Source of the DNA: an uncultured Pseudomonadales bacterium | Lineage (GTDB): Bacteria; Patescibacteriota; Microgenomatia; UBA1400; MFAQ01 | Assembly: GCA_964357975.1 (NCBI GenBank) | Contig: CAYHNG010000002.1 | Location: 4,560-68,559 of the forward strand | DNA length: 64,000 nucleotides | Direction: 5' to 3' | Shown: positions 3,207 to 62,280 of the stretch, one piece after another | How positions within the stretch are numbered: the stretch's first letter is position 1 | Layout: every line of letters starts with the position of its first letter | Made by a program: the position numbers and the translations under genes | Notes under the pieces: generated by a model | Seen by the model: the letters and a program-made list of their open reading frames with translations, nothing else | Told to the model about the DNA's origin: nothing | The model's database searches: none

Positions 3207-4075
3207 GCTTGTTTGCAGCACTGATATTTGCGGGGCTTCTTTTTCAAGAAGGGGCCTTTGGTAAAGTCTTGCAAGCGTTTTTCGTTTTCACTATTTTTAG
3301 TAGTGTCACCTATCTTTTTAACGACTTAGTGGACATCGAAGCAGATCGGAAACACCCTTACAAAAAATTTAGACCGATCGCCAGTGGAGAACTACCGGTA
3401 CCGATAGCGGTAACCGCACTGATAGTAGGGATAATTACCGGTTTGGCTTGGGCCTATGGACTGAACTATTATCTGTTTATCAGCGGGGTGACTTATTTGC
3501 TGATTCAGGTGGCTTATACCAAGTACCTCAAAAATATCCCCATCATAGACGTAATTGTGATTGCTTCCGGATATCTAATTCGAGTTTACGCGGGTGCCCT
3601 CACAATTTCGGCTCATATGGACGTTTGGTTCCTCATGACGGTGATAGCGGCATCCCTGTTCCTGGCTGTCGGTAAAAGAAGAGGAGAGATGACTCTATTG
3701 CTTCACTATAAAGAAACGGAGACCAGAGCGACTCTCAAAAGATACACCGAGCATTTACTGGATATATATACGGCAATGTTTGCTACCGGGACCTGGATCA
3801 CCTACGCCCTGTTTACCTTTAACCAACCCAAGATTGTACCGGACGGCAGAGCTTTACAACTGATTTCGATTTTGCCAAAAACTTTGATATCCGAAAAATG
3901 GATGATGATTACAATTCCGTTTGTGGTGTACGGCATCATGAGATACCTACAATTAATCTACGAAAGGAACGAAGGAGAGAGTCCGGAGAGAGTTCTTTTG
4001 TCCGATAAGCCACTGATGATTACCGGTGTAAGCTGGGCGGTGATGGTGATAGGGGTGCTTTATTACATCGGTTAA
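3146..4075 (+). CDS. UbiA-family prenyltransferase (decaprenyl-phosphate phosphoribosyltransferase-like)
   Basis: RPRQWVKN N-terminus and an NDLVDIEADRKHPYKKFRPIASGEL Asp-rich motif. It overlaps the preceding gene by 61 nt in another frame. Confidence 0.6.
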   Translation: MAIFLAFLKEIRPRQWVKNLSLFAALIFAGLLFQEGAFGKVLQAFFVFTIFSSVTYLFNDLVDIEADRKHPYKKFRPIASGELPVPIAVTALIVGIITGLAWAYGLNYYLFISGVTYLLIQVAYTKYLKNIPIIDVIVIASGYLIRVYAGALTISAHMDVWFLMTVIAASLFLAVGKRRGEMTLLLHYKETETRATLKRYTEHLLDIYTAMFATGTWITYALFTFNQPKIVPDGRALQLISILPKTLISEKWMMITIPFVVYGIMRYLQLIYERNEGESPERVLLSDKPLMITGVSWAVMVIGVLYYIG

Positions 4076-23673: not shown

Positions 23674-25830
23674 ATGAGGGTGATGGAAAAGAATTACGAT
23701 CACAAAGAATACGAAGAGAAGATATATCGCGAGTGGGAGGCTAGTGGAGCCTTTACTCCCCCTACTGGAGCTGGGGTAGCAAAAACCGGACAGAAGACTT
23801 TAACGATCATTATGCCACCTCCAAACGCCAATGATCCGTTACATGTGGGACATGCGATGTTTGTGACGATCGAGGATATTCTGGTTAGATTCCACAGAAT
23901 GCGAGGTGAAGCGACTCTGTGGCTTCCGGGTACTGATCATGCCGGAATCGAAACGCAGTTTGTCTTTGAAAAGAAATTAGCTAAACAGAAAAAGAGTCGA
24001 TTTGATTTTGATAGGGACACTCTATATCAAATGATCTGGGATTATGTACAAGAAAACTCCGGAGTAGCGATCGAACAAATGAAAAAATTGGGAGCAAGTG
24101 CCGATTGGAGCAGATATAAGTTCACCCTCGACCAGGAGGTGGTCACAGAGGTTATCAAAACCTTTGTAAAGCTACACGAAGACGGATTGGTCTACAGAGG
24201 TGTCAAACTAGTCAATTACTGCACCCGATGTGGGACCGCCTATTCGGAACTGGAAGTGGATCATGAGGATCGAGAGGACAAGCTCTACAAAATAAATTAC
24301 GGAAAAATTATGGTGGCGACTACCAGACCGGAAACCATGCTCGGAGATGTGGCAGTGGCCGTTAATCCGGATGACCCCAGATACAAGAAGCTGATTGGCG
24401 AGAAGGTTGCCTTGCCACTCGTAGGGAGAGAAATACCCATTGTCGGGGACTCAATGGTGGACATGGAGTTTGGAACCGGTGCCGTAAAGATTACTCCGAC
24501 TCACGATCAAAATGATTGGGAGGTAGCGGTAAGGCAAGGGTGGAATATGGAAGAGATTGTCAGAGACTATCAGGTAATCGGAAATAACGGCAAGATGACC
24601 CAGAATGCCGGGAAATATGAGGGGTTGAACACAGTAGAGGCGAGAGAGAAGGTAGTGACTGATTTGGGAGAAGCTTTAATAGAAACGAAACCTTATCTTC
24701 ACAGCGTGGGTACTTGTTATCGATGCCATCGAATAATTGAGCCTTTGCCGATGAAACAATTCTTTATCAAGGTTAAAACTCTTGCAGATAAAGCTCTGAA
24801 AGCTCTCGATCAAGGAGAGACGGAGATTATGGGATCCGGTCATGACAAAATCTTACGTCACTGGCTAAGCAACTTACGAGATTGGAATATCAGCCGGCAG
24901 ATTGTTTGGGGAATAAGAATACCGGTGTGGTATCCACCAAAAGAACTCAAGGAATCAAGAACTCAAGGAATCAAGACAGAAAATGAGGAGTATGTGGTGA
25001 GTGAGAAGAGCCCGGGTGAAGGGTGGATTCAGGAAACAGATACGTTTGATACCTGGTTTTCTTCCGGCCAATGGCCAGTGGTGACACTAAAAACCGGTAA
25101 ACCGGGAGACTTTGAGGCATATTATCCAACGAGCGTAATGGAAACAGCCTATGACATTCTCCCCTTTTGGGTGATGAGGATGATGATGCTCGGCATATAT
25201 ATGACAGGAAAATCTCCCTTTAGAACGGTGTATTTACACGGATTGGTGCGAGATGAAAAGGGAGAAAAGATGAGCAAAAGTAAAGGCAACGTGATCAATC
25301 CTTTGGACTTGACCGAAAAATATGGAGCGGATTCTCTGAGGATGGCCCTGGTCATGAGCACGACGCCAGGACAAGATAGCAACACGGGAGAGAACAAAGT
25401 ACGGGGTATGAGAAATTTCGGGAATAAGATTTGGAATGCGGGAAGATATGTGTTGGAACTTGGATCAATAATGTCAGATGGAGTGAGATTGCCACGTCAC
25501 TCCGTTCCTCGCAATGACGGCGTTGGAGGAGAGAAAGATGATGACTTTGAAAAGAAGATGGAGGTAATAAAAAAGGAATTAACCAGATTGTTGGAGGATA
25601 ACCGTGTCGGACTGGCGGCGGAGTATATTTACAATGAATTTTGGCACTGGTTTTGTGATGAGCAGATTGAAGAAAATAAACAAGGAAGGATTAGTGACGA
25701 GGTCCTCAAAGCTGGATTTGAATCATTTTTGAAAATGCTTCACCCGTTCGTCCCCTTTGTGACGGAAGCGGTGTGGAAAGAGGCGTTTCCGGAGGAAGGA
25801 TTGATTATTAGTCAGAAGTGGCCGATTTAA
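23674..25830 (+). CDS. valS: Valine--tRNA ligase (short form lacking C-terminal coiled coil), with an in-frame family-A repeat
   Basis: PPPNANDPLHVGHA (HIGH) and KMSKSKGN. The peptide GVRLPRHSVPRNDG is encoded by repeat copy A3. Confidence 0.9.
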   Translation: MRVMEKNYDHKEYEEKIYREWEASGAFTPPTGAGVAKTGQKTLTIIMPPPNANDPLHVGHAMFVTIEDILVRFHRMRGEATLWLPGTDHAGIETQFVFEKKLAKQKKSRFDFDRDTLYQMIWDYVQENSGVAIEQMKKLGASADWSRYKFTLDQEVVTEVIKTFVKLHEDGLVYRGVKLVNYCTRCGTAYSELEVDHEDREDKLYKINYGKIMVATTRPETMLGDVAVAVNPDDPRYKKLIGEKVALPLVGREIPIVGDSMVDMEFGTGAVKITPTHDQNDWEVAVRQGWNMEEIVRDYQVIGNNGKMTQNAGKYEGLNTVEAREKVVTDLGEALIETKPYLHSVGTCYRCHRIIEPLPMKQFFIKVKTLADKALKALDQGETEIMGSGHDKILRHWLSNLRDWNISRQIVWGIRIPVWYPPKELKESRTQGIKTENEEYVVSEKSPGEGWIQETDTFDTWFSSGQWPVVTLKTGKPGDFEAYYPTSVMETAYDILPFWVMRMMMLGIYMTGKSPFRTVYLHGLVRDEKGEKMSKSKGNVINPLDLTEKYGADSLRMALVMSTTPGQDSNTGENKVRGMRNFGNKIWNAGRYVLELGSIMSDGVRLPRHSVPRNDGVGGEKDDDFEKKMEVIKKELTRLLEDNRVGLAAEYIYNEFWHWFCDEQIEENKQGRISDEVLKAGFESFLKMLHPFVPFVTEAVWKEAFPEEGLIISQKWPI
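25490..25520. repeat. Family-A repeat, copy A3 (in frame inside valS)
   Basis: GGAGTGAGATTGCCACGTCACTCCGTTCCTCGCAATGACGG, with a 7 bp GGAGTGA/TCACTCC stem. Confidence 0.7.
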
Positions 25831-29718: not shown

Positions 29719-30156
29719 TTATTTATTGAGAGCGTCGTTAACCAACTGGTCGGCTTCTTTGTTTTTGTCTCTAAGCACATTAACAAAGGACATTAGTTTT
29801 ATTTGATCATTGTCTCTGAGTTTTTTGATCAGACTAACAATGGACTTTCGTAACTCTTGGAGATGTAGTTGTTTAACTTTATAGAGACCGGTGATTTGTT
29901 TGACAATCAGTTCGGAGTCAAGAATAAAGCGAATTTTTTCGGTAGAGATGTCCCGGATTTCAATTTCTTCTAAAGCTCTGAGGACGGCGGTATATTCGGC
30001 CACGTTGTTGGTCGTCTCACCAATTTTTTCCGAGAGAGTAAAGACAACATGACCATCGGCTTTGGCGACGACACCAATGGCGGCCTGGCCCGGATTACCC
30101 CGGGAACCTCCATCGGTATTTATTTCCAGTAAATCTAGGGTTTTCGACATAGGCAT
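29719..30156 (-). CDS. RNase HI-like protein
   Basis: NTDGGSRGNPGQAA...NNVAEYTAVLRALE. Confidence 0.7.
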   Translation of the reverse strand: MPMSKTLDLLEINTDGGSRGNPGQAAIGVVAKADGHVVFTLSEKIGETTNNVAEYTAVLRALEEIEIRDISTEKIRFILDSELIVKQITGLYKVKQLHLQELRKSIVSLIKKLRDNDQIKLMSFVNVLRDKNKEADQLVNDALNK

Positions 30157-30159
30157 AGT

Positions 30160-31299
30160 CTACAGTAAAATCGCTCCGGCGAGAAGAAGAATGAGTTTGT
30201 TTTGAGGAAGTGTCCACCAGTAATGATCAAAAGAACCGGTAATGATGACGATGACTACAAGCGTGAGAAATTGGGGATTGAGAATTTTTCGGTAATTTTG
30301 GTGAAGAAGAAGAACGATAAGAGCTAACCCGACAAAGCCAATCTCTGACACAAGCAGAACCGGCAGGTTGTGAACCGGCTGTAATTTCTCCGAGAGCAAG
30401 AATGAGCCGGGAAGAAACCGGACAAGAGAGGGGATGAAGTTTCCAAGCCCAACACCCAAGAGCGGAGACTGGAAAATAATATACCGAGAAGGAACCAGAA
30501 GAAAAAAGCGGTCGGAAACGAATTGAAGACTAGGCAGAAGGTTAGGTAGTACCGGTTGAAGCAGAGAAAATGTAAGAAACGAAACAATAGGAAAGAAGGA
30601 ATTAAGTGGAAAAGTGAAGACCAGAAGAAAGGCGAGGAGAGCCCCTTTGGAGAAAGTAAGAAGTAGTCCGAGAAACACAAAAAGACGGTGCCAGAGTGCA
30701 CTTCGGTGAAGATGAAGAAGATAGTAAACAATAAGAAGATAGCCGGCAAGAGAGTTGGGGTGAGAAAAGAGGGAAGGAGGCCGAACAAAATCTAACCCTC
30801 CGAGAGAGAGTCTGGCGAGACCGGAGGTAGAGGAAGTAAAGGCCCTTTCCCCAAGCCAGTAGAGGAGACCGCCGAGGGAGGATTGGCGGAACAATTGAAA
30901 CATCTCCAATGAAACCACCAAAAGGGTGGAGATTATAAGAGGTTGTCTCACTTGAGACCAAGTGACTTTCCTAAGACGAAGGGTAAGAAAAAAGAGGAGA
31001 TAAAGTAAAACTCGCCCCCACCAAAAAACAGAGTTAGGAGGCGAGACCCCGTAAAAGGAGTTAAGGAAAACATATACCAAGAAGGAACCAACTTTAAACT
31101 TATGGTTTTTGAGCCAAGTGATAATAATCTTGAGATTTAGGGCAATGAAAGCGATGAGTGGGAGGTCGGTGAAGTAAAGAGTGGGGGAGAGATAGTCGAT
31201 TTTGATGCCGGCCGCACGAGAGAACTCGGGCCAAAAATGAAGTCCGAGTTGGGATGGAAGAAAGAAGACAATTAGTTGGAGAAGGATGATTGAAAACAC
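30160..31299 (-). CDS. O-antigen ligase/Wzy-like polytopic membrane protein
   Basis: About 10 TM helices with FSHPNSLAGYL and VHNLPVLLVSEIGFVGL (Wzy_C-like). Confidence 0.45.
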   Translation of the reverse strand: MFSIILLQLIVFFLPSQLGLHFWPEFSRAAGIKIDYLSPTLYFTDLPLIAFIALNLKIIITWLKNHKFKVGSFLVYVFLNSFYGVSPPNSVFWWGRVLLYLLFFLTLRLRKVTWSQVRQPLIISTLLVVSLEMFQLFRQSSLGGLLYWLGERAFTSSTSGLARLSLGGLDFVRPPSLFSHPNSLAGYLLIVYYLLHLHRSALWHRLFVFLGLLLTFSKGALLAFLLVFTFPLNSFFPIVSFLTFSLLQPVLPNLLPSLQFVSDRFFLLVPSRYIIFQSPLLGVGLGNFIPSLVRFLPGSFLLSEKLQPVHNLPVLLVSEIGFVGLALIVLLLHQNYRKILNPQFLTLVVIVIITGSFDHYWWTLPQNKLILLLAGAILL

Positions 31300-31317
31300 T
31301 AAGGAGATTGTACCCCC

Positions 31318-31779
31318 TTATTCTGCGGTGGGAATGATTACCATTTGACGATAGGGGGCTTCACCACGTGATTCGGTCCGGACGCCTTTGTATTCTTCCA
31401 AAAAGAGATGGATAATGCGGCGTTCGAAGGAACTGAGATTGGGGAGAATTATTTCCTTTTGGAGGGAGACGGCCCTGTCGGCGGCATTCTGAGCCAATTC
31501 TTTGAGGGAGTCCTCGCGTCGTTCCTGATAGTCATTTACATTAAGATGAAGTTTGGGCCAGACACCAAAGCGCTGATAGATCATGAGAGAGAAGATCATA
31601 CGGAGAGAAGCCAAACCTTCACCATGATGTCCCACAAAAATACCGGCGGCGTCTGTAGAGGGGGTCAGGAGAATATTGATATTGTCCTCGTCGGCAACCT
31701 CGATTTTGATTTGATCTTCGTTAAGCTCCAGTTGAGTCAAAACGTTGGAGAGTATTTCGGTAACCTTTGATTGGTCCAT
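31318..31779 (-). CDS. jag: Jag/KhpB-like RNA-binding protein (KH + R3H)
   Basis: R3H-like SFERRIIHLFLEEYKGVRTESRGEAPYRQMVI, located directly downstream of yidC. Confidence 0.6.
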   Translation of the reverse strand: MDQSKVTEILSNVLTQLELNEDQIKIEVADEDNINILLTPSTDAAGIFVGHHGEGLASLRMIFSLMIYQRFGVWPKLHLNVNDYQERREDSLKELAQNAADRAVSLQKEIILPNLSSFERRIIHLFLEEYKGVRTESRGEAPYRQMVIIPTAE

Positions 31780-31784
31780 GTTAA

Positions 31785-32522
31785 TTATTGTTTGATAACC
31801 CTTAGTTTAAGAAGGATGGGTTTTAAGCCACCCAGACCGGAGAAGTAGTATTGTTGAACAATAGAAAAGATGGTAGAAACTACCCAGTAAAGAATGAGAC
31901 CGGATTGAAAGTTAAGAGAGATCAAAACAGTCATAATCGGCATCATGTAGAGCATTTGCTGCTGCATGCTGGCGGCCATCTCCAGATTATCTTCTTCCTT
32001 TTTCTTTTCGTCTTTTTGTTTTGGATTCTGGACGTGAGATTCAACTCCGGACTGCATCATGAGGGAGAAAATTAGCTGAGAAACTCCGGCGAGAACCGGC
32101 ATGATATAGGTATGGTCGGGCTTGGTAAGGTCTAAGTAAAGAAAGTGGGGGTTGACGAGAAGCCCTCCAATGGAAGGTTGTTTGATAAATTCCATGAAGA
32201 CTTGATACAGAGAAATGAGAATAATGATTTGAACTATTTGGGGAAGACAGCCGGCGGCAGGGTTGATGCCTTGCTCTTTGTAGAGAGCCATTTGGGCCAC
32301 TTGAAGCTCTTTTTTGTCTTTGTGTTTTTCCTTGAGCCTGTCTAAAGCAGGTTTGAGTTCCTGCATTTTTTTGGCTGACTTCATGGAGGGAAGAACAAGA
32401 GGAATAAGGATAAATTTGGTGATAAGGGTGATAGCGATGATGGGTAAACCAAGATTGCCGCCAAAAAGACGATAGAAAAAGACAAGGACTTGATAGAGGA
32501 TGTAGTTGATTGGTGCGAGCAT
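31785..32522 (-). CDS. yidC: Membrane protein insertase YidC (short form)
   Basis: Five-TM core with QMALYKEQGINPAAGCLPQIVQ, in the conserved rpmH-rnpA-yidD-yidC-jag context. Confidence 0.7.
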   Translation of the reverse strand: MLAPINYILYQVLVFFYRLFGGNLGLPIIAITLITKFILIPLVLPSMKSAKKMQELKPALDRLKEKHKDKKELQVAQMALYKEQGINPAAGCLPQIVQIIILISLYQVFMEFIKQPSIGGLLVNPHFLYLDLTKPDHTYIMPVLAGVSQLIFSLMMQSGVESHVQNPKQKDEKKKEEDNLEMAASMQQQMLYMMPIMTVLISLNFQSGLILYWVVSTIFSIVQQYYFSGLGGLKPILLKLRVIKQ

Positions 32523-35648: not shown

Positions 35649-35852
35649 ACACGTGACTGGTGAGTATTATACCTGATAAATGTCCGGAGCGAATGGATGG
35701 TAATTTTGATGGAGACCAATAAGGAACCTCCTCGCAGGACTACCTACAAGGAAGATCCTTGTAGGGGAGCTGGATTTGTGATGTGGATAGTATTATTCTT
35801 TTTGGGTAATTTGGGGGTTGTAAAAATGTGGATAAGTAGTGAGAATGGGCGT

Positions 35853-37235
35853 ATGGACAGTGAGAAGTTATGGCATAGCATTTGCGGTGAGTTGGGCGTT
35901 TCGATGTCTCCCGCCAGTTTTGCAGGCTTTATCAAGCCTTGTTTCTTGCGATCGGTAACTCCGATTGATGATCAACGACTGCTTTTGGAGTTGGCGGCTT
36001 CATCTGTTTTTTTGAGTCACACCATCGAGACCAAGTATTACAGTCTCATCAAACAAGCCGCCGAAAAAATTTCCGAAAAGAAGTGTGATATCGCTTTGAT
36101 TGTGGTTGAAGCTACCAAAGAAGTTAAGTTGAGTAAAAAGGAAATCAATAAGATGGGGGAGGTAAATGAGACCAGCATTGGACTATTTACCCCACAGGAG
36201 GAGAATAAACAAACCGGAACCAATCTGAATCCCCGTTATGTTTTTGAGTCATACATGGTGGGAAGTTCGAATAGACTGGCTTTCGCCGCCGCCAAAGCAG
36301 TGGTCGACTATCCCGGCACCAGACACAACCCACTATTTATCTATGGGGGAGTCGGGGTTGGAAAGACTCATTTGATGCATGCGGTAGGACATGAACTGGT
36401 CAAAAAAGGAGTGGGTAAAGTAGTCTGTGTGACAAGTGAACAGTTTACGAACGATTTGGTCGGTTCGTTTAAATCCAAAATGACGGATGCTTTTAAGAAA
36501 AAATATCGACAGGTAGGAGCATTGCTGGTAGATGATGTGCAGTTTTTTGGGGGAAAAGATTCAACACAAGAAGAGTTCTTCCATACCTTTAACGAACTGA
36601 CAAATAAACAAGCGCAGATTATCATGACGAGTGACCGAAAACCACAAGAGATCGTCGGTTTGGAGGATAGACTACGAAGCCGCTTCTTGGGTGGCATGAT
36701 GGTGGATATTGGTTTACCGGACTACGAGATGAGACTGGCGATTTTGCGGCAGCGAGCACTAGATATTAAAGCAGAAGTAGAAGATAGTGCCTTTGAACTA
36801 ATTGCCAATAGCTATCCAACAAATGCCCGCGAGCTGGAAGGAACTTTCGTCAGGCTAGCCACAGGTGCCAGTATTGACGGGGGAGTCTTAACCAGAGAAA
36901 TGGTACAGCAAACAATGGGACTTCCGGCCAATACTGTGAAAGACATTAAAGTGCGACCGATCAAGGTGATCTCGACAGTCGCCAAGTATTTTGATTTCAG
37001 AAACAAAGATCTCTTGGGGGAGAGTAGGAAGGCCGACTTGGTAGTGGCGAGACACATTGCCATGTATATTCTGAGAGAAACACTAAAGCTTAATCTGACT
37101 GAAGTCGCGGAGTTGATGGGAGGCCGAGATCATACTACAGTGATGCATGCATGCGAGAAAATGGAGCTAGAAATTGAGAAAAATATGGATATCAGGCGTA
37201 AAGTAATGGCTCTGAAACAGGCGTTATACACCTAA
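35853..37235 (+). CDS. dnaA: Chromosomal replication initiator DnaA
   Basis: Walker A GGVGVGKTHLMHAVG and C-terminal DNA-binding domain. Start set at MDSEKLW (35853) because the longer track ORF from 35697 contains DnaA boxes TGTGGATAG and TGTGGATAA and odd hydrophobic sequence. Confidence 0.8.
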   Translation: MDSEKLWHSICGELGVSMSPASFAGFIKPCFLRSVTPIDDQRLLLELAASSVFLSHTIETKYYSLIKQAAEKISEKKCDIALIVVEATKEVKLSKKEINKMGEVNETSIGLFTPQEENKQTGTNLNPRYVFESYMVGSSNRLAFAAAKAVVDYPGTRHNPLFIYGGVGVGKTHLMHAVGHELVKKGVGKVVCVTSEQFTNDLVGSFKSKMTDAFKKKYRQVGALLVDDVQFFGGKDSTQEEFFHTFNELTNKQAQIIMTSDRKPQEIVGLEDRLRSRFLGGMMVDIGLPDYEMRLAILRQRALDIKAEVEDSAFELIANSYPTNARELEGTFVRLATGASIDGGVLTREMVQQTMGLPANTVKDIKVRPIKVISTVAKYFDFRNKDLLGESRKADLVVARHIAMYILRETLKLNLTEVAELMGGRDHTTVMHACEKMELEIEKNMDIRRKVMALKQALYT

Positions 37236-37550
37236 CTATCCACAACTTATCCACGCTCTGTGGATATCTTAAGAAACTGTGTAGAAGTTTTAAATTTTCA
37301 GGAAACGGGTGGATAAACGACCAAGTTATTCAGAAAAGAATCCACAGAAAACAAAGGTTGTTAGTGCAAGGTGCGAGGTGTGGGACAGTAATTTTGATAT
37401 TAAAAGGGTGGATGTAAGAGTCAAAAAAATATTAATAACAGAGAATGTAGGCAAGGGGCAAAGCTACTATCCACTTGTCCACCGCTTCTATTACTACTCA
37501 CTACTATTTTTATTTAAGATAAATATATTATTTATAACAAAGAGAGATGA
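37236..37550. promoter_or_regulatory. Putative oriC: DnaA-box cluster plus AT-rich unwinding element between dnaA and dnaN
   Basis: At least six 9-mers matching TTATCCACA in both orientations (CTATCCACA, TTATCCACG, TGTGGATAT, GGTGGATAA, AATCCACAG, CTATCCACT), then AT-rich CTATTTTTATTTAAGATAAATATATTATTTATAACAAAG. Confidence 0.55.
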
Positions 37551-37759
37551 TAATGGAGGCCGATAAGGATTCACCTCGCATGGTTACATACAAGGAGAAT
37601 CCTTTGGTAAGGGAATCGAGATGAATGAGGTTATAGAATAAAAATACATATACAATAGGGAACTGATAAGAGCTTGCTCGTCTTCTTTTCAATAACCTTG
37701 TTATTGAAATATCCAGACTGTGCTTCCTCTTATATTCGCTTACAACTTCGTTATAATGC

Positions 37760-38878
37760 TTGAATATGAAGATAACTGTATTGTCAACCGACTTAAAGAA
37801 ATATCTAGGAATTGTAAATCGAGGTATTGGGGTAAGACCTCAGCTGCCTATTTTGTCGGGTGTTCTTTTGAAAGTGACAAAGGAGGAAGTAAATTTGGTG
37901 TCGACTGACTTGGAAGTAAGTTTTTGGGTGAAACTACCGGCCAAGATAGATGAGGAAGGAGAGATGGTAGTACCGGCAAAGCTTTTTGGAGAATTGGTGG
38001 CCAGTTTGCCGGCTGGAAATGTAACTCTTTCGGCAGAAAAAAACACTTTAACAGTTTCCGCCAAAGGTATTAACGCAGAAGTTGTAGGACAAGGGGTGGA
38101 GGATTTTCCAAGTATTCCTAGAGCCAAAAAACCTCAAATTACCTTAAAGAGTGGAGATTTTAGACAAAAGATGGATCGGGTGTGTATTTCGGCGGCACGT
38201 GATGATACAAGACCGGTCTTGACCGGTGTCTTGTGGGAGTTGGAAGAGAATAAGACTATTTTGGCGGCGACAGATGGATACAGATTGGGAGTTGATAAAT
38301 TAAATGTTGGCAAAACAACTATTGAGAAGAACACCCGTTTTATTTTACCGGCACGATCTCTTCAGGAAATATCCAAAGTCCTGGCTGAGACAGGTGAGGA
38401 TAATTTTGGTATTGAATTTGACAAAGAAAATCAACAGGTGATCTTTACCATTGCCGATATGGAAGTCTCCTCCCGCCTGATTGCAGGCGAGTTTCCGCCC
38501 TATCAACAAATTATGCCGAATACTTACTCAACAAAGGCGGTATTTAACAGGGAAGAGCTACTAGAAGCGGTCAAGAGGGCCAATTTGTTTGCAAGGGACA
38601 ATGCCAATATTGTAAAAATGACCATCGAAGGTGAAAGACTAATTGTGAAAGCGGAAAGTAGTCAGCTTGGAAGCAATTCGACAGAGATCGAAACGGAAAT
38701 TGAAGGAGAAGGTTTGACCGTCGCTTTTAATGCCAGATATCTATTAGATTATCTGGGAGTGAACAATGCGGAGAGAGTGGTTTGGGAGACGGAAGGGGAA
38801 CTCAAACCAAGCGTCTTCAAGAGAGAGGATGATGACGGCTGGATTCAGGTAGTAATGCCGGTTAGGGTGCAGAATTAG
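37760..38878 (+). CDS. dnaN: DNA polymerase III beta sliding clamp
   Basis: MNMKITVLSTDLKKYLGIVNRGIGVRPQLPILSGVLLKV. Confidence 0.85.
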   Translation: MNMKITVLSTDLKKYLGIVNRGIGVRPQLPILSGVLLKVTKEEVNLVSTDLEVSFWVKLPAKIDEEGEMVVPAKLFGELVASLPAGNVTLSAEKNTLTVSAKGINAEVVGQGVEDFPSIPRAKKPQITLKSGDFRQKMDRVCISAARDDTRPVLTGVLWELEENKTILAATDGYRLGVDKLNVGKTTIEKNTRFILPARSLQEISKVLAETGEDNFGIEFDKENQQVIFTIADMEVSSRLIAGEFPPYQQIMPNTYSTKAVFNREELLEAVKRANLFARDNANIVKMTIEGERLIVKAESSQLGSNSTEIETEIEGEGLTVAFNARYLLDYLGVNNAERVVWETEGELKPSVFKREDDDGWIQVVMPVRVQN

Positions 38879-56497: not shown

Positions 56498-56854
56498 TTA
56501 GGTGCCAAATTGGGTAACCTTGGCACCGGTAAAGTTCTCGATGAGAACTAAGGCCAGCCAAACCACCGCGAGGAGAATCAAGCCAATAACGGCCCAGGTA
56601 AACATGGAATAGGCACTGGCGACTGCTTTGGGTTCGGCGCCGGCGGAGATCAAACGAATTCCGGCCATAATGATTATTCCGACAGCAACGAGAGCCAATA
56701 GGGCAGGGATGGGTTGAAGAATGTTTTTAAAGAGACAGGTGATACCTTGTATCGAAGCGACATCGGTAGCATCGACTCCAGCAACATTTTGACCAACACA
56801 TTCTCCAGTCCAATTACTGGCGGCATAGACTTGGGAGACGAGTTGGAAGGACAT
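56498..56854 (-). CDS. VirB2/TrbC-like pilin paralog 1 (divergent, 2 Cys)
   Basis: Leader MSFQLVSQVYAA|S, two hydrophobic helices, loop ISAGAEPKAV. Confidence 0.5.
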   Translation of the reverse strand: MSFQLVSQVYAASNWTGECVGQNVAGVDATDVASIQGITCLFKNILQPIPALLALVAVGIIIMAGIRLISAGAEPKAVASAYSMFTWAVIGLILLAVVWLALVLIENFTGAKVTQFGT

Positions 56855-56903
56855 AAATATATTTTACATTGAATATTTCGGATTGTATATTTTTTTCTTG
56901 GAT

Positions 56904-56997
56904 GGTTCGAAGTGCGCAAAATATCGTACTCGACCTCCGTCCCTCGAGTACGAGTGCGGATCCGCTCCGTGCGAAATTTTGCTTGCCCTTCTGCACC
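56904..56997. repeat. Family-C direct repeat, copy C1 (about 95 bp, nested palindromes)
   Basis: GGTTCGAAGTGCGCAAAATATCGTACTCGACCTCCGTCCCTCGAGTACGAGTGCGGATCCGCTCCGTGCGAAATTTTGCTTGCCCTTCTGCACC, about 93% identical to C2. Contains GTACTCGA...TCGAGTAC and GCAAAAT...ATTTTGC stems. Confidence 0.75.
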
Positions 56998-57027
56998 ATT
57001 TGGTAGTCATAACAAAAACCGCCTGAC

Positions 57028-57086
57028 GGTGGAGTTTTTGTATGAGATTGCTTCAGCTCGAATACGAGATTCGCAATGACGAAGTG
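57028..57086. repeat. Family-A-like repeat, copy A10, with adjacent weak terminator hairpin (3' of pilin gene 2)
   Basis: CCGCCTGACGGTGGAGTTTTTG then GAGATTGCTTCAGCTCGAATACGAGATTCGCAATGACGAAGTG. Confidence 0.5.
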
Positions 57087-57087
57087 C

Positions 57088-57429
57088 TTAGTAAGGTTTG
57101 GGGATGTTGATATTTCCCTCGAAGACGTCGACACCGAAGAAGTAGGCGATGAGTTTCATGAGAGCCCAAGAGGCAGCGACGATAGCGAGACCAACGACGG
57201 CGGCGGTGATACGATTTCTGGCTTGTTCTGTTTTACCTTTATCTCCACCGGAGGTAAGCCATTCAATACCTCCCATGACTAGAAAGGCAAAGGTAAGAAT
57301 ACCGGCTACGATGAAGGCGAGAGAAATGACTCTACTAATAAGAACACCAATGTCGGTGATCTTCATTCCGGTTGGTTGGGGAACTCCAATGGTTCCGGCG
57401 GCGGCATAAGCTTGAGAAATTAGGGACAT
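57088..57429 (-). CDS. VirB2/TrbC-like pilin paralog 2
   Basis: Leader MSLISQAYAAA|G, TM1, loop LTSGGDKGKTEQ, TM2. Confidence 0.55.
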   Translation of the reverse strand: MSLISQAYAAAGTIGVPQPTGMKITDIGVLISRVISLAFIVAGILTFAFLVMGGIEWLTSGGDKGKTEQARNRITAAVVGLAIVAASWALMKLIAYFFGVDVFEGNINIPKPY

Positions 57430-57496
57430 ATTTTTTGGTTTTTTAATAATTATTTATTCTATTACTAATTTAGTATTATACCCGTTATTGAGTTTG

Positions 57497-57856
57497 TCAA
57501 TTGCCGAGAGGATTTTCGGTACACAGAGCATCCAAATTAATTCCGAAAAACTCAAGCACAATCATATAGACCGCATAACTGGAGGCAACGATGGTGAGGC
57601 CAATAAGGGCGGCCGATATCATCTTTTGGGAGGATTCGATCTTACTTTTGTCTCCACCGGAAGTGAGCCACTGGACTCCACCCATGACGAGGTAGACGAA
57701 GAAGGCGACTCCAGAAATAATGAAGGCAGCACTGACTAGATTACTGACGAGATGGCCGATACAGGTATAACCAAAGAAATTATTTTTAGTGGCCATTTCT
57801 CCGATGGGAAGAGTAATATCAGCAGCCAATACCTTAGGAATTATTTTTGGGATCAT
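57497..57856 (-). CDS. VirB2/TrbC-like pilin paralog 3
   Basis: Leader MIPKIIPKVLAA|D, loop LTSGGDKSKIE, 2 Cys. Confidence 0.55.
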   Translation of the reverse strand: MIPKIIPKVLAADITLPIGEMATKNNFFGYTCIGHLVSNLVSAAFIISGVAFFVYLVMGGVQWLTSGGDKSKIESSQKMISAALIGLTIVASSYAVYMIVLEFFGINLDALCTENPLGN

Positions 57857-58203
57857 AAGGCGCTTGGAAATACCGGTTTAAGAATATTAATTTTGAAGAC
57901 TTGTTGGATAAAGTAGGTGACCGCATAAGAGCCGACCAGTATTCCAATGCCGATGACAGAGCTGGTGATTTTTTTTTGAGCATCATCAATTTTGGCCTTG
58001 TCACCTCCGGAGGTAAGATATTCTATACCTCCCCAGACAAGATAAATAATGAAGGCGACTCCTCCAACGGTGATGACTGTCTGCCAAAGAGTGGCAATAT
58101 AAAAGGCAAGACCGCCTCCTGGGTCCTGAGGTATTTTGGGCGACAGTGCCTTATTGACAATTTCGTTGGCGGCAAAAGCAGTAGGTATTATTTGAAAGGC
58201 CAT
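57853..58203 (-). CDS. VirB2/TrbC-like pilin paralog 4
   Basis: Leader MAFQIIPTAFAA|N, loop LTSGGDKAKID. ATGA overlap with paralog 3. Confidence 0.55.
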   Translation of the reverse strand: MAFQIIPTAFAANEIVNKALSPKIPQDPGGGLAFYIATLWQTVITVGGVAFIIYLVWGGIEYLTSGGDKAKIDDAQKKITSSVIGIGILVGSYAVTYFIQQVFKINILKPVFPSAL

Positions 58204-58208
58204 TTTGT

Positions 58209-58577
58209 TTAGAGTTTTAGTGCATCAAATGGATTAAGAATGTCGAGACCGAGAACGGCTCCGACGATGCCAATAATAAAGAAGGAGGCGACGATAGCGA
58301 TAAGGCCAATAGCCGCTTGGGTCATTGAGGTTTGAGCTTCCGAGACCTTTGCCTTGTCTCCACCAGCTGTAATCCATTTTAGACCACCCATGGTGAAATA
58401 GATGACAAAGGCCAAACTGCCGACAACGGTAATGGTGGTGATTAAATTAGAAAGAAATGTTCCCAAACCACTTTGGACACCTCCACTGATGCCTGTTTGA
58501 AAAGGGCCAATTCCTCCAACTTCACTGCCTAGTGGGATATCGGCGGCGGCAAGGGCTGAGGAAATAAATGTCATCAT
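58209..58577 (-). CDS. VirB2/TrbC-like pilin paralog 5
   Basis: Leader MMTFISSALAAA|D, loop ITAGGDKAKVSE. Confidence 0.55.
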   Translation of the reverse strand: MMTFISSALAAADIPLGSEVGGIGPFQTGISGGVQSGLGTFLSNLITTITVVGSLAFVIYFTMGGLKWITAGGDKAKVSEAQTSMTQAAIGLIAIVASFFIIGIVGAVLGLDILNPFDALKL

Positions 58578-58580
58578 AAT

Positions 58581-58946
58581 TTAGATAGATTTTAATTTAG
58601 GAGCCAAGATTGCTCCAAAGTCTCCAAAGAGGACCTTGCTGACGATGGCAATAATTAGGAAACTAGCGGCAATAATGACTAGCCCCACAAGACTCATGGT
58701 GATTTTATTTTGAGCTTCAGTTAGTTTACCTTTGTCTCCACCGGAGGCAATATAGGCAAGTCCACCAGTGAGGAGTTGCCAGAGAGCGAAGACTCCGGCA
58801 ATAACTACAATGAAGCGAACTAGGGCAGAGATGATATCTGTGGTCTGAGTGGTTTCCTTTGGGATGCCTGCGGGAAGGTCGATGGTACCTATTACATTCG
58901 CGGCTAGGGCTGACTTGGCGAATAATGTGTTTAGTATATTGATCAT
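58581..58946 (-). CDS. VirB2/TrbC-like pilin paralog 6
   Basis: Leader MINILNTLFAKSALAA|N, loop IASGGDKGKLTE. Confidence 0.55.
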   Translation of the reverse strand: MINILNTLFAKSALAANVIGTIDLPAGIPKETTQTTDIISALVRFIVVIAGVFALWQLLTGGLAYIASGGDKGKLTEAQNKITMSLVGLVIIAASFLIIAIVSKVLFGDFGAILAPKLKSI

Positions 58947-58949
58947 AAA

Positions 58950-59273
58950 TTAAAAGAATTTAAAGCCAATAATTGCCCCCATAACTCGGGTGATTAGGAA
59001 AGCGAGAACAATGAGGATCAGACCAAGTATTCCATAGTTTAGCATGTTCTGAGCTTGTTCGGTTTTGCCTTTGTCACCACTTGCAGTGATATAGTTGAAA
59101 CCAGCCAGGATAATGACGATAAAGGCCATGACGCCGGAAATTATTAGCACATTGGAGATTAGAGGGTTAATAAGGTTGGCCAATGTGGCCCCACTACCGC
59201 CGACATTCAAGGCTTTGCCTGGAGCATAGAGATTTTCCAACGATTCTGCCGCAAGGACAGTTTTGATAACCAT
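58950..59273 (-). CDS. VirB2/TrbC-like pilin paralog 7
   Basis: Leader MVIKTVLAA|E, loop ITASGDKGKTEQ. Confidence 0.55.
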   Translation of the reverse strand: MVIKTVLAAESLENLYAPGKALNVGGSGATLANLINPLISNVLIISGVMAFIVIILAGFNYITASGDKGKTEQAQNMLNYGILGLILIVLAFLITRVMGAIIGFKFF

Positions 59274-59302
59274 ACTGCCATTTTACAGTAAAATTAGACA
59301 CT

Positions 59303-60415
59303 ATGGAAACAAACAAGCTTGGGCGGTGGGCAAAAGAAAAATTAATCGAACTGGCATCCGAAACAGATGCGAGACTGGAAAAATATTGGGATAAGGAGAT
59401 AAAGAAGGACTTTGGTTTTAACAAAACGCAAAAAGAATTGGTGAGAAAAATGCTTTTGCATGCCAGAGAACACAACCTCAGATCGGCCAAAAGAGCAAGG
59501 GCGGGATTCGTAATTTATGGATATCAGCTGGGCAAAGAACCTGATCACTTAAGGAAGCAAGAACTCAAGACAGAAAAAGAAAAAGTGTGGAGGGCGGCGG
59601 AAGGGATAGAGTTGATTCACACGGCTCTTTTAATGCACGATGATTTTATGGATGGGGATAGGGTAAGGAGAGGAGGTCCGACGACTCAGGAATTTTTTGG
59701 TAAGGTAGACACACATTATGGAGATACGATGGCCATAAATGTCGGTGATGCAATTCTGTGTATGGGGTTTGACAGACTATTGGAGTGTAGCTCCGAGGGA
59801 GAAAAGACCAGACAGGTTATGAAACAGGTGTTCAACGGAATAACTCATACAGCCTTTGGGCAGGCGTATGATCTGAGTTTGCCAAAATTGGGAGAGATGA
59901 CGGAAGAAAAGGTGATGAGTTTGCACAGAGCAAAAACAGCTATTTATACTTACGAGAACCCATTATTGATTGGTGGAATTCTGGCTGGATTAACAAAAGA
60001 GGTTTTGGAAATCTTGCGAGATTATGCCACCGATGGAGGAATTGCGTTCCAGCTGCAAGACGACATTTTAGGTGTTTATGGGAACGAGGAAAAAACCGGA
60101 AAATCAATTAACTCGGATTTATTGCAGGGCAAGGTAACCCTTTTGGTAGTTAAAGTGATGGAAACGGGGACAAGGCAACAAAAAGAAAACTTGTTGAGAA
60201 TATGGGGAAAAAAGCAGGCGGAGACAAAAGATATCGATGCGGCGAAAGAAGCAATCAGAGATAGTGGGGCATATATGTATTCGGTAAAGGTGGCGAGAGA
60301 GTTGGCCGAGAAATCGGCTCGGACAACAAACAGATTGCGGGGGAAAGGATTAAACGATGAAGCAATTAACTATTTGGAAGGGATTGCGAGGTATATGGTG
60401 GAGAGAGAGGTTTAG
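59303..60415 (+). CDS. trans-Isoprenyl diphosphate synthase (polyprenyl synthetase family)
   Basis: FARM LMHDDFMDGDRVRRG and second Asp-rich region FQLQDDILGVYG. Confidence 0.8.
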   Translation: METNKLGRWAKEKLIELASETDARLEKYWDKEIKKDFGFNKTQKELVRKMLLHAREHNLRSAKRARAGFVIYGYQLGKEPDHLRKQELKTEKEKVWRAAEGIELIHTALLMHDDFMDGDRVRRGGPTTQEFFGKVDTHYGDTMAINVGDAILCMGFDRLLECSSEGEKTRQVMKQVFNGITHTAFGQAYDLSLPKLGEMTEEKVMSLHRAKTAIYTYENPLLIGGILAGLTKEVLEILRDYATDGGIAFQLQDDILGVYGNEEKTGKSINSDLLQGKVTLLVVKVMETGTRQQKENLLRIWGKKQAETKDIDAAKEAIRDSGAYMYSVKVARELAEKSARTTNRLRGKGLNDEAINYLEGIARYMVEREV

Positions 60416-60428
60416 AGTCTCACTTTTC

Positions 60429-60523
60429 GGTTCGAAGTGCGCAAAATGTTGTGCTCGACCTCCGTCCCTCGAGTACGAGTGCGGATCCGCTCCGCGCGAC
60501 ATTTTGCTTGCCCTTCTGTACCG
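60429..60523. repeat. Family-C direct repeat, copy C2
   Basis: GGTTCGAAGTGCGCAAAATGTTGTGCTCGACCTCCGTCCCTCGAGTACGAGTGCGGATCCGCTCCGCGCGACATTTTGCTTGCCCTTCTGTACC. Confidence 0.75.
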
Positions 60524-60784
60524 TCGTTCGACAATACCTAATGTGACAAAGGTGAGAGTGTTTGGGAGAAAGGGTGTCCTAAGATTTATTTTATGGAAAT
60601 ACCCAGACATTGGCGCGAACAGCCAACGAGGATGAGATTTGATGGATCAGAGAAAAACTTAAAAGATTCAGAAATGAGAGTGTTTAAGTATCCCGGGGGG
60701 TCTATCCCATTAGTAGGTGATTATCAGCAGATTCGACAGCGATTTGAGAAAAGAGGTTTTAGTGAAGAAGCAACAGAGGAAATT

Positions 60785-61495
60785 TTATTTCGACTTTGGG
60801 GTGGAATCCCCGCCGAAGCGGCGATCTCTTTGGGTGAAGTCGTCAATAGCTTTCATGAATTGGTCGGGAGTGAAATCGGGGAATAAGGTAGGAGTGAAGT
60901 AAAGTTCCGAGTAGACACTTTGCCAGGGTAGGTAACCCGAGGTACGGCGTTCTCCACCGGTACGGATAACTAGGTCGGGGTCGGGCATACCGGCGGTGTC
61001 CAGGTAAGATGAAAAAATTTCTTCATTTATATTGTTTGCGGGAATCTGGTCGTTGATGATTTTTTTGATTGCACGAATGATTTCGTCCCGACCACCATAA
61101 TTAAGAGCAAAGGAGACAGTAATTTTATTGTTTTTGGAGGACTTAGAGATCATTTCCATTGATTTTTTGGCAATATCTTCAGGGAAACGGCTCATGTCAC
61201 CTAATATTTGTAGCTTTGCTCCTCGCTTAATAAATCTGAGAGCAAGGGCTCCAAAGGCAATTCGAAATATATCTAAAATCCCCCTGACTTCTTTTTCGTC
61301 TCTTTTCCAATTTTCGGTAGAGAAGGCCCAAAAGGTCACATAGGGGATACCCAGATCGACACATTTTTCGATCAGAGGTTCAATGGTGTGGTTGGCGGCG
61401 TATTCGTGACCTTTGACAGGTTCCAAACCTTGTTTTTTTGCCCAACGACGGTTGCCATCCATCATGATCGCAATATGTTTTAGTGGAAGTTCCAT
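60785..61495 (-). CDS. uppS: Undecaprenyl diphosphate synthase (cis-prenyltransferase)
   Basis: MMDGNRRWA and YVTFWAFSTENWKR motifs. Confidence 0.85.
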   Translation of the reverse strand: MELPLKHIAIMMDGNRRWAKKQGLEPVKGHEYAANHTIEPLIEKCVDLGIPYVTFWAFSTENWKRDEKEVRGILDIFRIAFGALALRFIKRGAKLQILGDMSRFPEDIAKKSMEMISKSSKNNKITVSFALNYGGRDEIIRAIKKIINDQIPANNINEEIFSSYLDTAGMPDPDLVIRTGGERRTSGYLPWQSVYSELYFTPTLFPDFTPDQFMKAIDDFTQRDRRFGGDSTPKSK

Positions 61496-61521: not shown

Positions 61522-61860
61522 CTAAACAATATTGCCCAGTCCTAAAAAGTTGGTAATGACACGTACAACTAGATAAGCGGTAAATACCATAATGAGACCG
61601 ATAAAGCTGTTTAATAGTCTTGTTGTAGCACTAGCTACCCTTTTCGGGTCCCCTGAGCTCATCATGTATTCCCAGCCGGCCATGACGAGATTAGCAAAAA
61701 AGAGAAGACCAACAATGACGAAAACAAGGGTGAGAAGGTCTTTTGATAATACACTACCAAGATCGGTGAATTTGTTGATTCCAACGACCTGGTTGATACT
61801 GTTTTCTAACCCCGTAATGTCTACTTCGTCAGCTGCCAGAACCAGATTGATTAATGACAT
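61522..61860 (-). CDS. VirB2/TrbC-like pilin paralog 8
   Basis: Leader MSLINLVLAA|DE, loop MMSSGDPKRVAS. Confidence 0.5.
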   Translation of the reverse strand: MSLINLVLAADEVDITGLENSINQVVGINKFTDLGSVLSKDLLTLVFVIVGLLFFANLVMAGWEYMMSSGDPKRVASATTRLLNSFIGLIMVFTAYLVVRVITNFLGLGNIV

Positions 61861-61863
61861 AGT

Positions 61864-62280
61864 TTATTTTAGACCGGGAAGGCTAAGAATGTTAACTCCA
61901 ATAAGTCTTAATAAAAAGACGGAAAGGATAATAAAAATTAGACCGGAAATGGCGGAAGTGATAATCTCTTGACCCTCTTTCAGCTTATCGGGAATGCCGG
62001 CTGAGGTAGTGATGATAAAGACTCCAAAGAGCATGAGAATAAGAGCTAGTCCACCCCCAAGACCAACGGCGATCTTGAAGACTGAAGTAAAAAATGACGC
62101 CCCACCGGTTTCGACTGAAGTTGATATGCAACCAAGAGCAGTATTCACTTCGTCAGTACCACATCCTGTGCTTGGACCAACAAAAGCAGCGTGTGTGGAA
62201 TGTGGGGATAGAACAATCAGTGAAACAAGAAATATGAATATGAAGTATACGAGGCTTCTCATGTAGGGTAATTTTAACAT
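61864..62280 (-). CDS. VirB2/TrbC-like pilin paralog 9 (divergent: classical signal peptide, Cys pair)
   Basis: Signal peptide ...LSPHSTHA|AF, GCGTDEVNTALGC, two hydrophobic helices with loop TTSAGIPDKLKEGQE. Confidence 0.45.
   Translation of the reverse strand: MLKLPYMRSLVYFIFIFLVSLIVLSPHSTHAAFVGPSTGCGTDEVNTALGCISTSVETGGASFFTSVFKIAVGLGGGLALILMLFGVFIITTSAGIPDKLKEGQEIITSAISGLIFIILSVFLLRLIGVNILSLPGLK

Follow-up and report, generated by a model that had tools for sequence, protein, structure and literature searches.

The stretch of DNA analysed here (64,000 nt, referred to as the window) was taken from contig CAYHNG010000002.1 of an assembly deposited as an uncultured Pseudomonadales bacterium, and harbours two copies, C1 and C2, of a short palindromic repeat that we term family C. 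The copies are found in a region of small pilin-like genes (Table 1), in which C1 separates pilin 1 from its six tandem paralogues and C2 follows a polyprenyl synthase gene. The gene context described in a first-pass annotation of the window matched the open reading frame (ORF) map. The genes called pilins there are pilin-like, but belong to PF18895 T4SS_pilin (VirB2-like) and are not type IV pilins, and a Pfam scan of the window placed VirB4, TraG and PrgI-like genes in the same region. The closest relatives of the polyprenyl synthase were Candidatus Collierbacteria proteins with at most 73% identity, and the contig that encodes the synthase protein comes from Hainich groundwater.

C1 and C2 are identical in 88 of 94 positions (94%), lie in the same orientation and made up the sole two-copy family recovered by the repeat search; the substitutions (n = 6) fall at element positions 20, 22, 25, 67, 72 and 91. 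The two same-orientation repeats reported in the first-pass annotation are real, and the palindromes named there were found in both copies. Its coordinates were right for C1, while the end of C2 had been placed at 60523, one base beyond the true end at 60522. A covariance model search of the 64 kb with filters off detected C1 and C2 and no further copy. Searches beyond the window returned a third copy, C3, on the source contig, and about 24 sites elsewhere. C3 is 96.8% identical to C2, is located between a SpoIID-domain gene and a bPH_2 gene, and has flanking arms that are perfect over 10 nt (AGAAAATTTA and TAAATTTTCT). With 3.5 kb between C1 and C2, and C3 a further 3.6 kb away, three copies are present within 7.3 kb. 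L018 and L152 (L numbers designate the collected loci), both of them different sites, carry copies whose core agrees with that of C1 in 94 of 94 positions. The element carries no gene, is C-rich with a skew of about −0.1, and has a GC content of 56–58% compared to 44.7% for the window.

Table 1. Features of family C and of the surrounding locus. Positions are those of the window unless stated otherwise; R1 is the covariance model.
Feature	Position	Strand	Remarks
C1, 94-nt repeat core	56904–56997	+	Between pilin 1 and pilin 2, antisense to both; R1 123 bits
C2, repeat core	60429–60522	+	Begins 14 nt past the polyprenyl synthase stop, same strand; R1 122 bits
C3, third copy	L001 5318–5427		Source contig, 51–160 nt beyond window position 64000; canonical
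C1 left flank, CTTGGAT	56897–56903	+	Extends the hairpin; pairs with 56998–57003, mostly G-U and A-U
C1 right flank, ATTTGG	56998–57003	+	Complements the left flank (minimum-energy fold; arm statistics over sites)
TTCG, 5′ edge of C1	56906–56909	+	No variation in 27/27 aligned copies
TTCG, 5′ edge of C2	60431–60434	+	Column invariant across aligned copies
C1 tip mini-hairpin, CUCG-AGUA-CGAG	56943–56954	+	Compensated elsewhere: CCAG...CUGG, CCGG...CCGG (pairs 51/60, 52/59)
C2 tip mini-hairpin	60468–60479	+	Covariation across copies
Six tandem type IV secretion system (T4SS)-type pilin genes (PF18895), small ORFs	57088–59273	−	Bracketed by C1 and C2; context, outside the repeat
Polyprenyl synthase gene (PF00348)	59303–60415	+	Context; C2 lies within its 3′ untranslated region
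Pilin 1	56498–56854	−	
uppS	60785–61495	−	
Two further pilin-like ORFs	61522–62280		
Terminator-like hairpin, T-runs on both strands	57019–57043		Context, outside the repeat; kept by relatives without the repeat
Family-A repeat	57040–57085	+	Separate interspersed family; context, outside family C

A dispersed repeat family

Altogether about 60 copies of family C were found at about 24 distinct genomic sites, orthologues being counted once, on contigs of the Collierbacteria type, a group of ultra-small bacteria from groundwater within the Candidate Phyla Radiation (CPR). In species-representative genomes the exact core 18-mer was present at 27 loci, 12 of which were true copies: nine in five Collierbacteria metagenome-assembled genomes (MAGs) and three in "Pseudomonadales" bins with Collierbacteria-type genes. 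The remaining 15 loci, roughly as many as expected, were chance matches in GC-rich genomes, and the covariance model matched none. A gapped pattern returned 118 loci from metagenome contigs, with 61 true copies representing 33 distinct sequences. Exact-match searches are biased toward conserved copies. Phage, plasmid and viral-contig collections gave no match to the repeat and, within the databases searched, the family is confined to Collierbacteria-type CPR bacteria. At gathering thresholds, Rfam recognised tRNA-Cys and nothing else in the whole window, and scans of C1 and C2 to E = 10 gave chance matches to small nucleolar RNA, microRNA and long non-coding RNA families far under the gathering scores. 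A literature search returned no description of small palindromic in-frame repeats for the CPR.

The repeat together with Collierbacteria-type genes was observed in MAGs labelled "uncultured Pseudomonadales" (L018, CAZGSP010000065.1; L021 and L023, CAZUFH010000054.1 and CAZUFH010000048.1), and the MnmA of L018 is 75% identical to that of L016. The "Pseudomonadales" bins with the repeat are probably mislabelled or contaminated. Some copies are rearranged. At L054 (1622–1751) a 27-nt GC hairpin is inserted within the 3′ half, and at L021 (about 2207–2390, + strand of the locus), a second site in the membrane-protein gene described below, a family-A-like element is joined to the 5′ end of family C. 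The 1195-nt contig Ga0210024_1073102 (L063) carries a chimeric copy at 54–163, in which the left flank and 5′ half match the L033 site, whereas the L028 site, the orthologue of C2, is the source of the 3′ half and right flank. This chimera may have arisen by recombination between copies and may equally be a misassembly.

Hairpin structure and covariation

Relative to shuffled sequences, C1 and C2 gave folding z-scores of −4.4 and −4.5 as RNA and about −4.6 as DNA. Their energy minimum is a Y-shape (three-way junction), and the fold of C1 continues into both flanks. The Y-shape was rejected as the conserved structure, as, across 27 copies, both of its inner helices lacked compensatory changes and showed several broken pairs. 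A rod-shaped hairpin in 27 distinct copies displayed 14 pairs with double changes (74 such cells), and its covariation score of 0.212, compared to 0.081 in shuffles, was reached by none of 500. Pair 35/77 covaries perfectly in the rod form (G-C in 17 copies, A-U in nine, G-U in one), and the tip helix occurs in the three variants listed in Table 1. For C1 and C2 the rod and the Y-shape differ by 1–2 kcal/mol; in the tip-variant copies the rod is the minimum-energy fold. The conserved fold is one long imperfect rod hairpin of about 45 bp, as single-stranded DNA (ssDNA) or RNA.

The inner approximately 45 nt are almost invariant and the outer stem covaries. In the diverged copies found by the model the tip varies and the ends are kept (GGTTCG..., CGTACTC/GYGTGCG and ...CTGCACC); the terminal GGTTCG... 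and ...CTGCACC, partly complementary to each other, are retained even there. Tip and stem variants are combined in a mosaic manner among copies. Templated "quasi-palindrome" mutation in long palindromes can yield paired changes without selection; the covariation shows that the hairpin mattered in the history of the sequence and is not proof of function.

A structured RNA element acting on the pilin and uppS transcripts had been put forward in the first-pass annotation. The conserved structure is borne out by the 27 copies, but the tie to these transcripts is not, given the approximately 24 unrelated sites, the copies within ORFs in both orientations and an orientation that follows the G-rich strand. 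Nor did a terminator role hold: the hairpin of C2 is not followed by a T-run (U-tract in RNA), and the T-run close to C1 is part of another hairpin (57019–57032), which is kept by relatives lacking the element. This hairpin and then the family-A repeat (about 57040–57085) do lie past C1, as had been described. At its 3′ end the polyprenyl synthase transcript gains from C2 a hairpin of about −40 kcal/mol.

Site-specific arms and conservation of orthologous copies

The flanks of the constant 94-nt core differ from site to site, but at most sites the two are complementary to each other. Perfect complementarity of at least 8 nt was found at 15 of 26 sites, and of at least 10 nt at 12 of 26, against 5% and 0.3%, respectively, in controls pairing flanks from mismatched sites. 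The copies with identical cores (C1, L018 and L152) have wholly different arms, and arms covary between orthologous sites (L018 with L120, C2 with L028 and C3 with L131). Simple fold-back copying of the left flank was rejected as the origin of the arms; it conflicts both with the small, constant internal loop that separates the proximal stem from the distal one and with the C3 site, which has neither arm when empty.

Orthologous copies are 89–100% identical versus 63–85% for their flanks (250 nt per side, mostly coding). An example of a decayed orthologue is the copy in L004, 65% identical to C3; decayed copies are known from L004, L049 and L016. Since neutral decay, even allowing for the bias of exact-match searches toward conserved copies, cannot leave 95–100% identity at such divergence, either selection on the sequence or copy correction is indicated. 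Exchange between copies is hinted at by the mosaic variants and by the chimeric L063.

Strand polarity

The element strand was found on the G-rich strand in 34 of 34 copies, representing 24 distinct sites. The skew ranged from +0.15 to +0.37 when each copy was oriented like C1 and up to 5 kb per side was included, with the element itself excluded. Polarity was independent of gene direction, and the five sites antisense to their genes also conformed. The shared orientation of C1 and C2 is therefore a genome-wide rule and not a local trait.

In Collierbacteria one strand is G-rich along the whole chromosome, which has been read as one-directional replication (PMC7143001). In the window the skew was positive on both sides of dnaA/dnaN (35697–38878) with no reversal, and the skew of this replication-origin neighbourhood fits the one-strand G excess of Collierbacteria. 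As dnaA and dnaN are located on the G-rich strand, and on the evidence of the same report (PMC7143001), the G-rich strand corresponds to the lagging-strand template. An orientation bias to the lagging-strand template, as in IS200/IS605 or REP/RAYT elements, was thereby found in 34 of 34 copies. C1, C2 and C3 are positioned 20–27 kb downstream of dnaA. The family-A repeats are equally polar, with all window matches on the + strand. Matches to rnpA, yidC and jag were also obtained in the window, probably in the ORF block at 29719–32522, and the skew is positive on either side of these genes as well.

Filled and empty sites in relatives

In three syntenic relatives (L002/3, L004/5 and L006/7) the order of pilin 1, pilins 2–7, synthase, small ORF and uppS is kept, and the polyprenyl synthase is 68–73% identical to that of the window. 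Alignment showed the C2 site to be cleanly empty in all three. C2 is shared with L028, in which the orthologous copy is 95.7% identical and the flanking DNA 74–77%. At the C1 site the syntenic relatives have other sequence, with only remnants or nothing of the element. The 3′-terminal 17 nt remain in L134, from the same population as L028, and the left flank together with GGTTCG, a 5′ remnant, remains in L004. Because remnants persist at the same site in L134 and L004, C1 is ancestral and the relatives lost it through different deletions; a fresh insertion of C1 in the window lineage was dropped for the same reason. At the C3 site, L002 has an empty spacer of 8 nt, L004/5 has a copy that is strongly diverged, and L131 has a good one.

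The first-pass annotation had suggested that the repeats could mediate cassette-like recombination of the pilin block, and had named the same gene order in near-identical strains without the repeats as a refutation. Such an arrangement is seen among the relatives with synthases 68–73% identical to that of the window. Since these relatives keep the order of the block without C2 and without an intact C1, the repeats do not define the pilin block. C1 and C2 are passengers at this locus, neither of them delimits a pilin cassette, and a role in pilin-cassette recombination is not supported.

Next to C2 lies a 97-aa ORF (60593–60886, + strand) without a Pfam match. L002, L004 and L006 have it as a called and conserved ORF. 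The convergent uppS overlaps this ORF with its 3′ end, and the region upstream of the ORF is highly conserved across genomes.

Copies between and inside genes

Most sites are located in short intergenic spacers, often 13–29 nt past a stop codon. On simple ORF maps, 16 of 21 readable sites were sense to the neighbouring or host gene and five were antisense. Several copies lie inside genes. The mnmA of L016 contains an in-frame copy, giving 33 extra residues after GHYAKL relative to L018, and sense in-frame copies were found in dus (PF01207) of L094, where the Pfam Dus match is broken into two, and in the gene for a PMT_2/TPR protein in L045. A gene encoding a membrane protein of 545–617 aa has an antisense copy, whose position is the same in L033 and L107 but different in L021. 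Homologues devoid of a family C insert are present in L018 and L045 (MnmA) and in L111 (Dus). Repeated in-frame insertion in unrelated genes without ORF breakage, as known from the Rickettsia palindromic elements (RPEs), is thus a property of the family.

As the in-ORF copies use three reading frames and both orientations, no single peptide is delivered. In all six frames 19 of 27 copies are free of stop codons, compared to 3 of 20,000 composition-matched shuffles. A protein search with the concatenated six-frame peptide of the element gave no match at E up to 10, and a 31-aa element query against 1.84 billion protein representatives recovered only a repetitive protein that is unrelated and two small ORFs that are spurious. 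Because the repeat is open in six frames, mechanical ORF calling, and evidently that of public gene callers, runs spurious short ORFs through intergenic copies, as at 60357–60635 (+ strand, 92 aa, over C2) and 56912–57079 (+ strand) and in the small ORFs P0121 and P0123.

In three species the repeat was observed exactly at a split in ComEC, between a 372-aa membrane part and a separate ORF of about 212–259 aa (L032 4746–4855, L101 6034–6143 and L056 676–785), with a stop codon 1–3 nt before the element. In L032 the separate ORF was shown to be the metallo-beta-lactamase part.

Other repeat families were also recorded, in part in the same genes. Further family-A copies (GAGATT...AATGACG) lie in the window at about 9229, 12965, 17193, 34294, 35263, 35604, 45554 and 45698, and a copy identical in 34 of 36 positions is in frame in the mnmA of L120, encoding the peptide RHCESRIRAEAI. 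Tandem 8-nt units (AAGAACTC / AAGGAATC) are located inside ORFs at 24937–24990 and 59539–59592, the latter inside the polyprenyl synthase gene, and encode KNSRTQELK-like peptides; they were also found in the mnmA of L045, the dus of L111 and the C1-site spacer of L002. A surface loop of MnmA just after GHYA is occupied by family C in L016 (about 3490–3633, − strand), by the 8-nt tandem repeat in L045 and by family A in L120. The mnmA of L018 has GGTTCG alone at this insertion position.

Discussion

Family C is dispersed, gene-less, hairpin-forming, tolerated in ORFs, strictly strand-polar, gained or lost at syntenic sites and unrelated to pilin function. We interpret it as a non-autonomous palindromic interspersed repeat behaving like the RPEs and probably spreading as ssDNA linked to replication, with a probability of roughly 0.6. 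The family is new, and its unusual traits are the strict strand polarity, the constant core with variable complementary arms, and a conservation above that of neighbouring genes. The element strand, sitting on the lagging-strand template, would be exposed as ssDNA at the replication fork, and its hairpin might there spread or be copy-corrected in step with replication. A tyrosine HUH enzyme could be supplied in trans, in the style of IS200/IS605-derived or REP/RAYT elements. The six-frame openness lets the element survive both between genes and in frame inside them. Comparison of filled and empty sites at C2 and C3 revealed no target-site duplication. When the collected loci were searched for solo element ends beside a possible autonomous partner, nothing appeared apart from copies already known, a single remnant and matches due to chance.

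Several observations weigh against this interpretation. No transposase was among the Pfam matches of the 64-kb window, and about 1.1 Mb of collected DNA gave no match in tblastn searches with IS200 TnpA and E. coli RAYT, which is a weak negative. TTCG is not assignable as an insertion target: the cleanly empty C2 and C3 sites do not have it, and two "empty" sites bearing GGTTCG look like deletion remnants. The folding energy of ssDNA is about equal on both strands, so it does not explain the polarity. [quoted passage not shown] Finally, a purely selfish relic should decay faster than the orthologous copies do. Some weight is left to a variant that we hold to be doubtful, in which the strand-polar hairpin, in genomes with apparently one-directional replication, has a core actively maintained by selection or copy correction, and arms that hairpin-templated DNA synthesis produces during insertion or afterwards. 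It would then be a replication-linked cis-element, or a mobile element propagated by an undescribed transposase-free route.

A functional structured RNA, be it a small RNA gene family or a cis-acting mRNA element (3′ stabiliser, processing site or protein-binding hairpin) with the long stem and conserved C-rich internal loops as working parts, would account for the strong covariation, which includes the flank arms of orthologous sites, and for inner sequences more conserved than the adjacent coding DNA. The prevalence of sense sites, many of them shortly past a stop codon, and the slightly better folding of the + strand than of the − strand as RNA point in the same direction. So does the best sigma-70-like match of the region (TTTACA-17-TATATT, 56863–56891), just upstream of C1 and with the terminator-like hairpin downstream of the repeat; these promoter-like and terminator-like sites, however, persist in relatives that have lost the element. 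An RNA gene would need neither six-frame openness nor in-frame copies in both orientations, and the orientation follows the G-rich strand in all 34 copies and not the genes, five sites being antisense. As the syntenic relatives also manage without C2, Rfam has no match and no U-tract follows the C2 hairpin, this explanation appears improbable to us. The polarity would be expected if the host kept the repeat as a DNA element, a hairpin on the lagging-strand template serving replication or chromosome handling (as a priming, pausing or loading signal) under apparently one-directional replication, in a lineage with a genome-wide G excess on one strand (PMC7143001). The conservation above coding flanks, a placement indifferent to genes, in which six-frame openness permits in-ORF sites, and the three copies downstream of dnaA agree with such a function. 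Against it stand the uneven spacing, with three copies in 7.3 kb and one exact match per contig of about 1.09 Mb (n = 2), and the sites lost or decayed in close relatives with no replacement. The equal polarity of the unrelated family A suggests a general property of repeat entry or survival, and we find a host-kept element quite improbable.

The main idea of the first-pass annotation, that recombination between the repeats could excise the pilin block, duplicate it or shuffle it, draws on direct repeats 3.5 kb apart with a third copy 3.6 kb further, on the mosaic tip and stem variants, and on L063, which joins two sites inside the element. A 1.2-kb chimeric contig at a repeat is, however, a common assembly artefact, and no C1/C2 hybrid junction was present among the contigs of the searched collections. 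The order and content of the pilin, synthase and uppS genes are the same in relatives without C2 and with remnants at the C1 site, elsewhere the family flanks unrelated genes, and the single orientation of all copies has causes unrelated to pilins. Recombination of the pilin block is accordingly very unlikely to be the role of the repeats, though incidental recombination between copies may occur. Two other candidates were rejected. An integron attC site does not agree with the 5′ GTTCGAA, which does not fit GTTRRRY, or with the 3′ end, which is not RYYYAAC, and the Pfam scan of the window contained no integrase family. In a diversity-generating retroelement pair the differences would be expected at A, but only three of six are, and both copies are non-coding. 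The single RVT_3 match in the window co-occurs with an RNase H match and is probably an RNase H-type protein.

Among known systems, the RPEs resemble family C in being palindromic interspersed elements of about 100–150 bp without genes or a known transposase, located between genes and unusually often in frame in unrelated housekeeping genes, to which they add a peptide (PMC10969869). The comparison is one of behaviour and not of sequence, and the host phylum differs, being CPR. Unlike RPEs, family C is open in six frames and inserted in three frames and both orientations with no one conserved peptide; it is also strictly strand-polar, combines a constant core with arms specific to each site, and has few copies. 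The IS200/IS605-derived PATEs and the REP/REPIN (RAYT) sequences share with family C the hairpin, the lack of classical terminal inverted repeats and of target-site duplications, a short motif fixed at one of the edges (TTCG in family C) and the bias of the hairpin strand to the lagging-strand template. The orientation bias of IS200/IS605 was reportedly described by Ton-Hoang et al. in 2010. In contrast to these systems, no Y1 transposase or RAYT was found with family C by the Pfam scan of the window or by tblastn of the collected loci, its TTCG is not shown to be a target, its copy number is low, and it forms one rod of about 45 bp in place of two subterminal hairpins or a REP of 20–40 nt.

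The ERIC/IRU sequences of enterobacteria are imperfect palindromes of about 100–130 bp in transcribed intergenic regions, present in few to moderate copies, highly conserved between species, and a site that one species has filled may be empty in another. By description, size class, imperfect palindrome, transcribed intergenic location, few to moderate copies, filled and empty sites and interspecies conservation are common to both families. To our knowledge ERICs are not noted for strand polarity or for frequent in-frame insertion in ORFs, and they differ from family C in these respects. Classical MITEs derived from DDE transposons, such as the Correia elements, are likewise small, non-coding, dispersed, provided with inverted-repeat ends and able to affect neighbouring transcripts (PMC10969869). 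Family C differs from them in being strictly polar, in its lack of target-site duplications and in being variable at the ends and conserved at the centre, the reverse of a typical MITE.

For annotation, family C means that gene callers run ORFs through the six-frame-open element, and assemblers may misjoin contigs there. The strict polarity of the repeat is an independent handle on the one-directional strand asymmetry of Collierbacteria and could be of use in testing how the chromosomes replicate. It is from Rickettsia that small palindromic repeats in frame in housekeeping genes are best known. Here no fewer than three repeat families, namely C, A and the 8-nt tandem unit, insert in frame in such genes, and such in-frame repeats are a concrete source of lineage-specific protein insertions in these bacteria.

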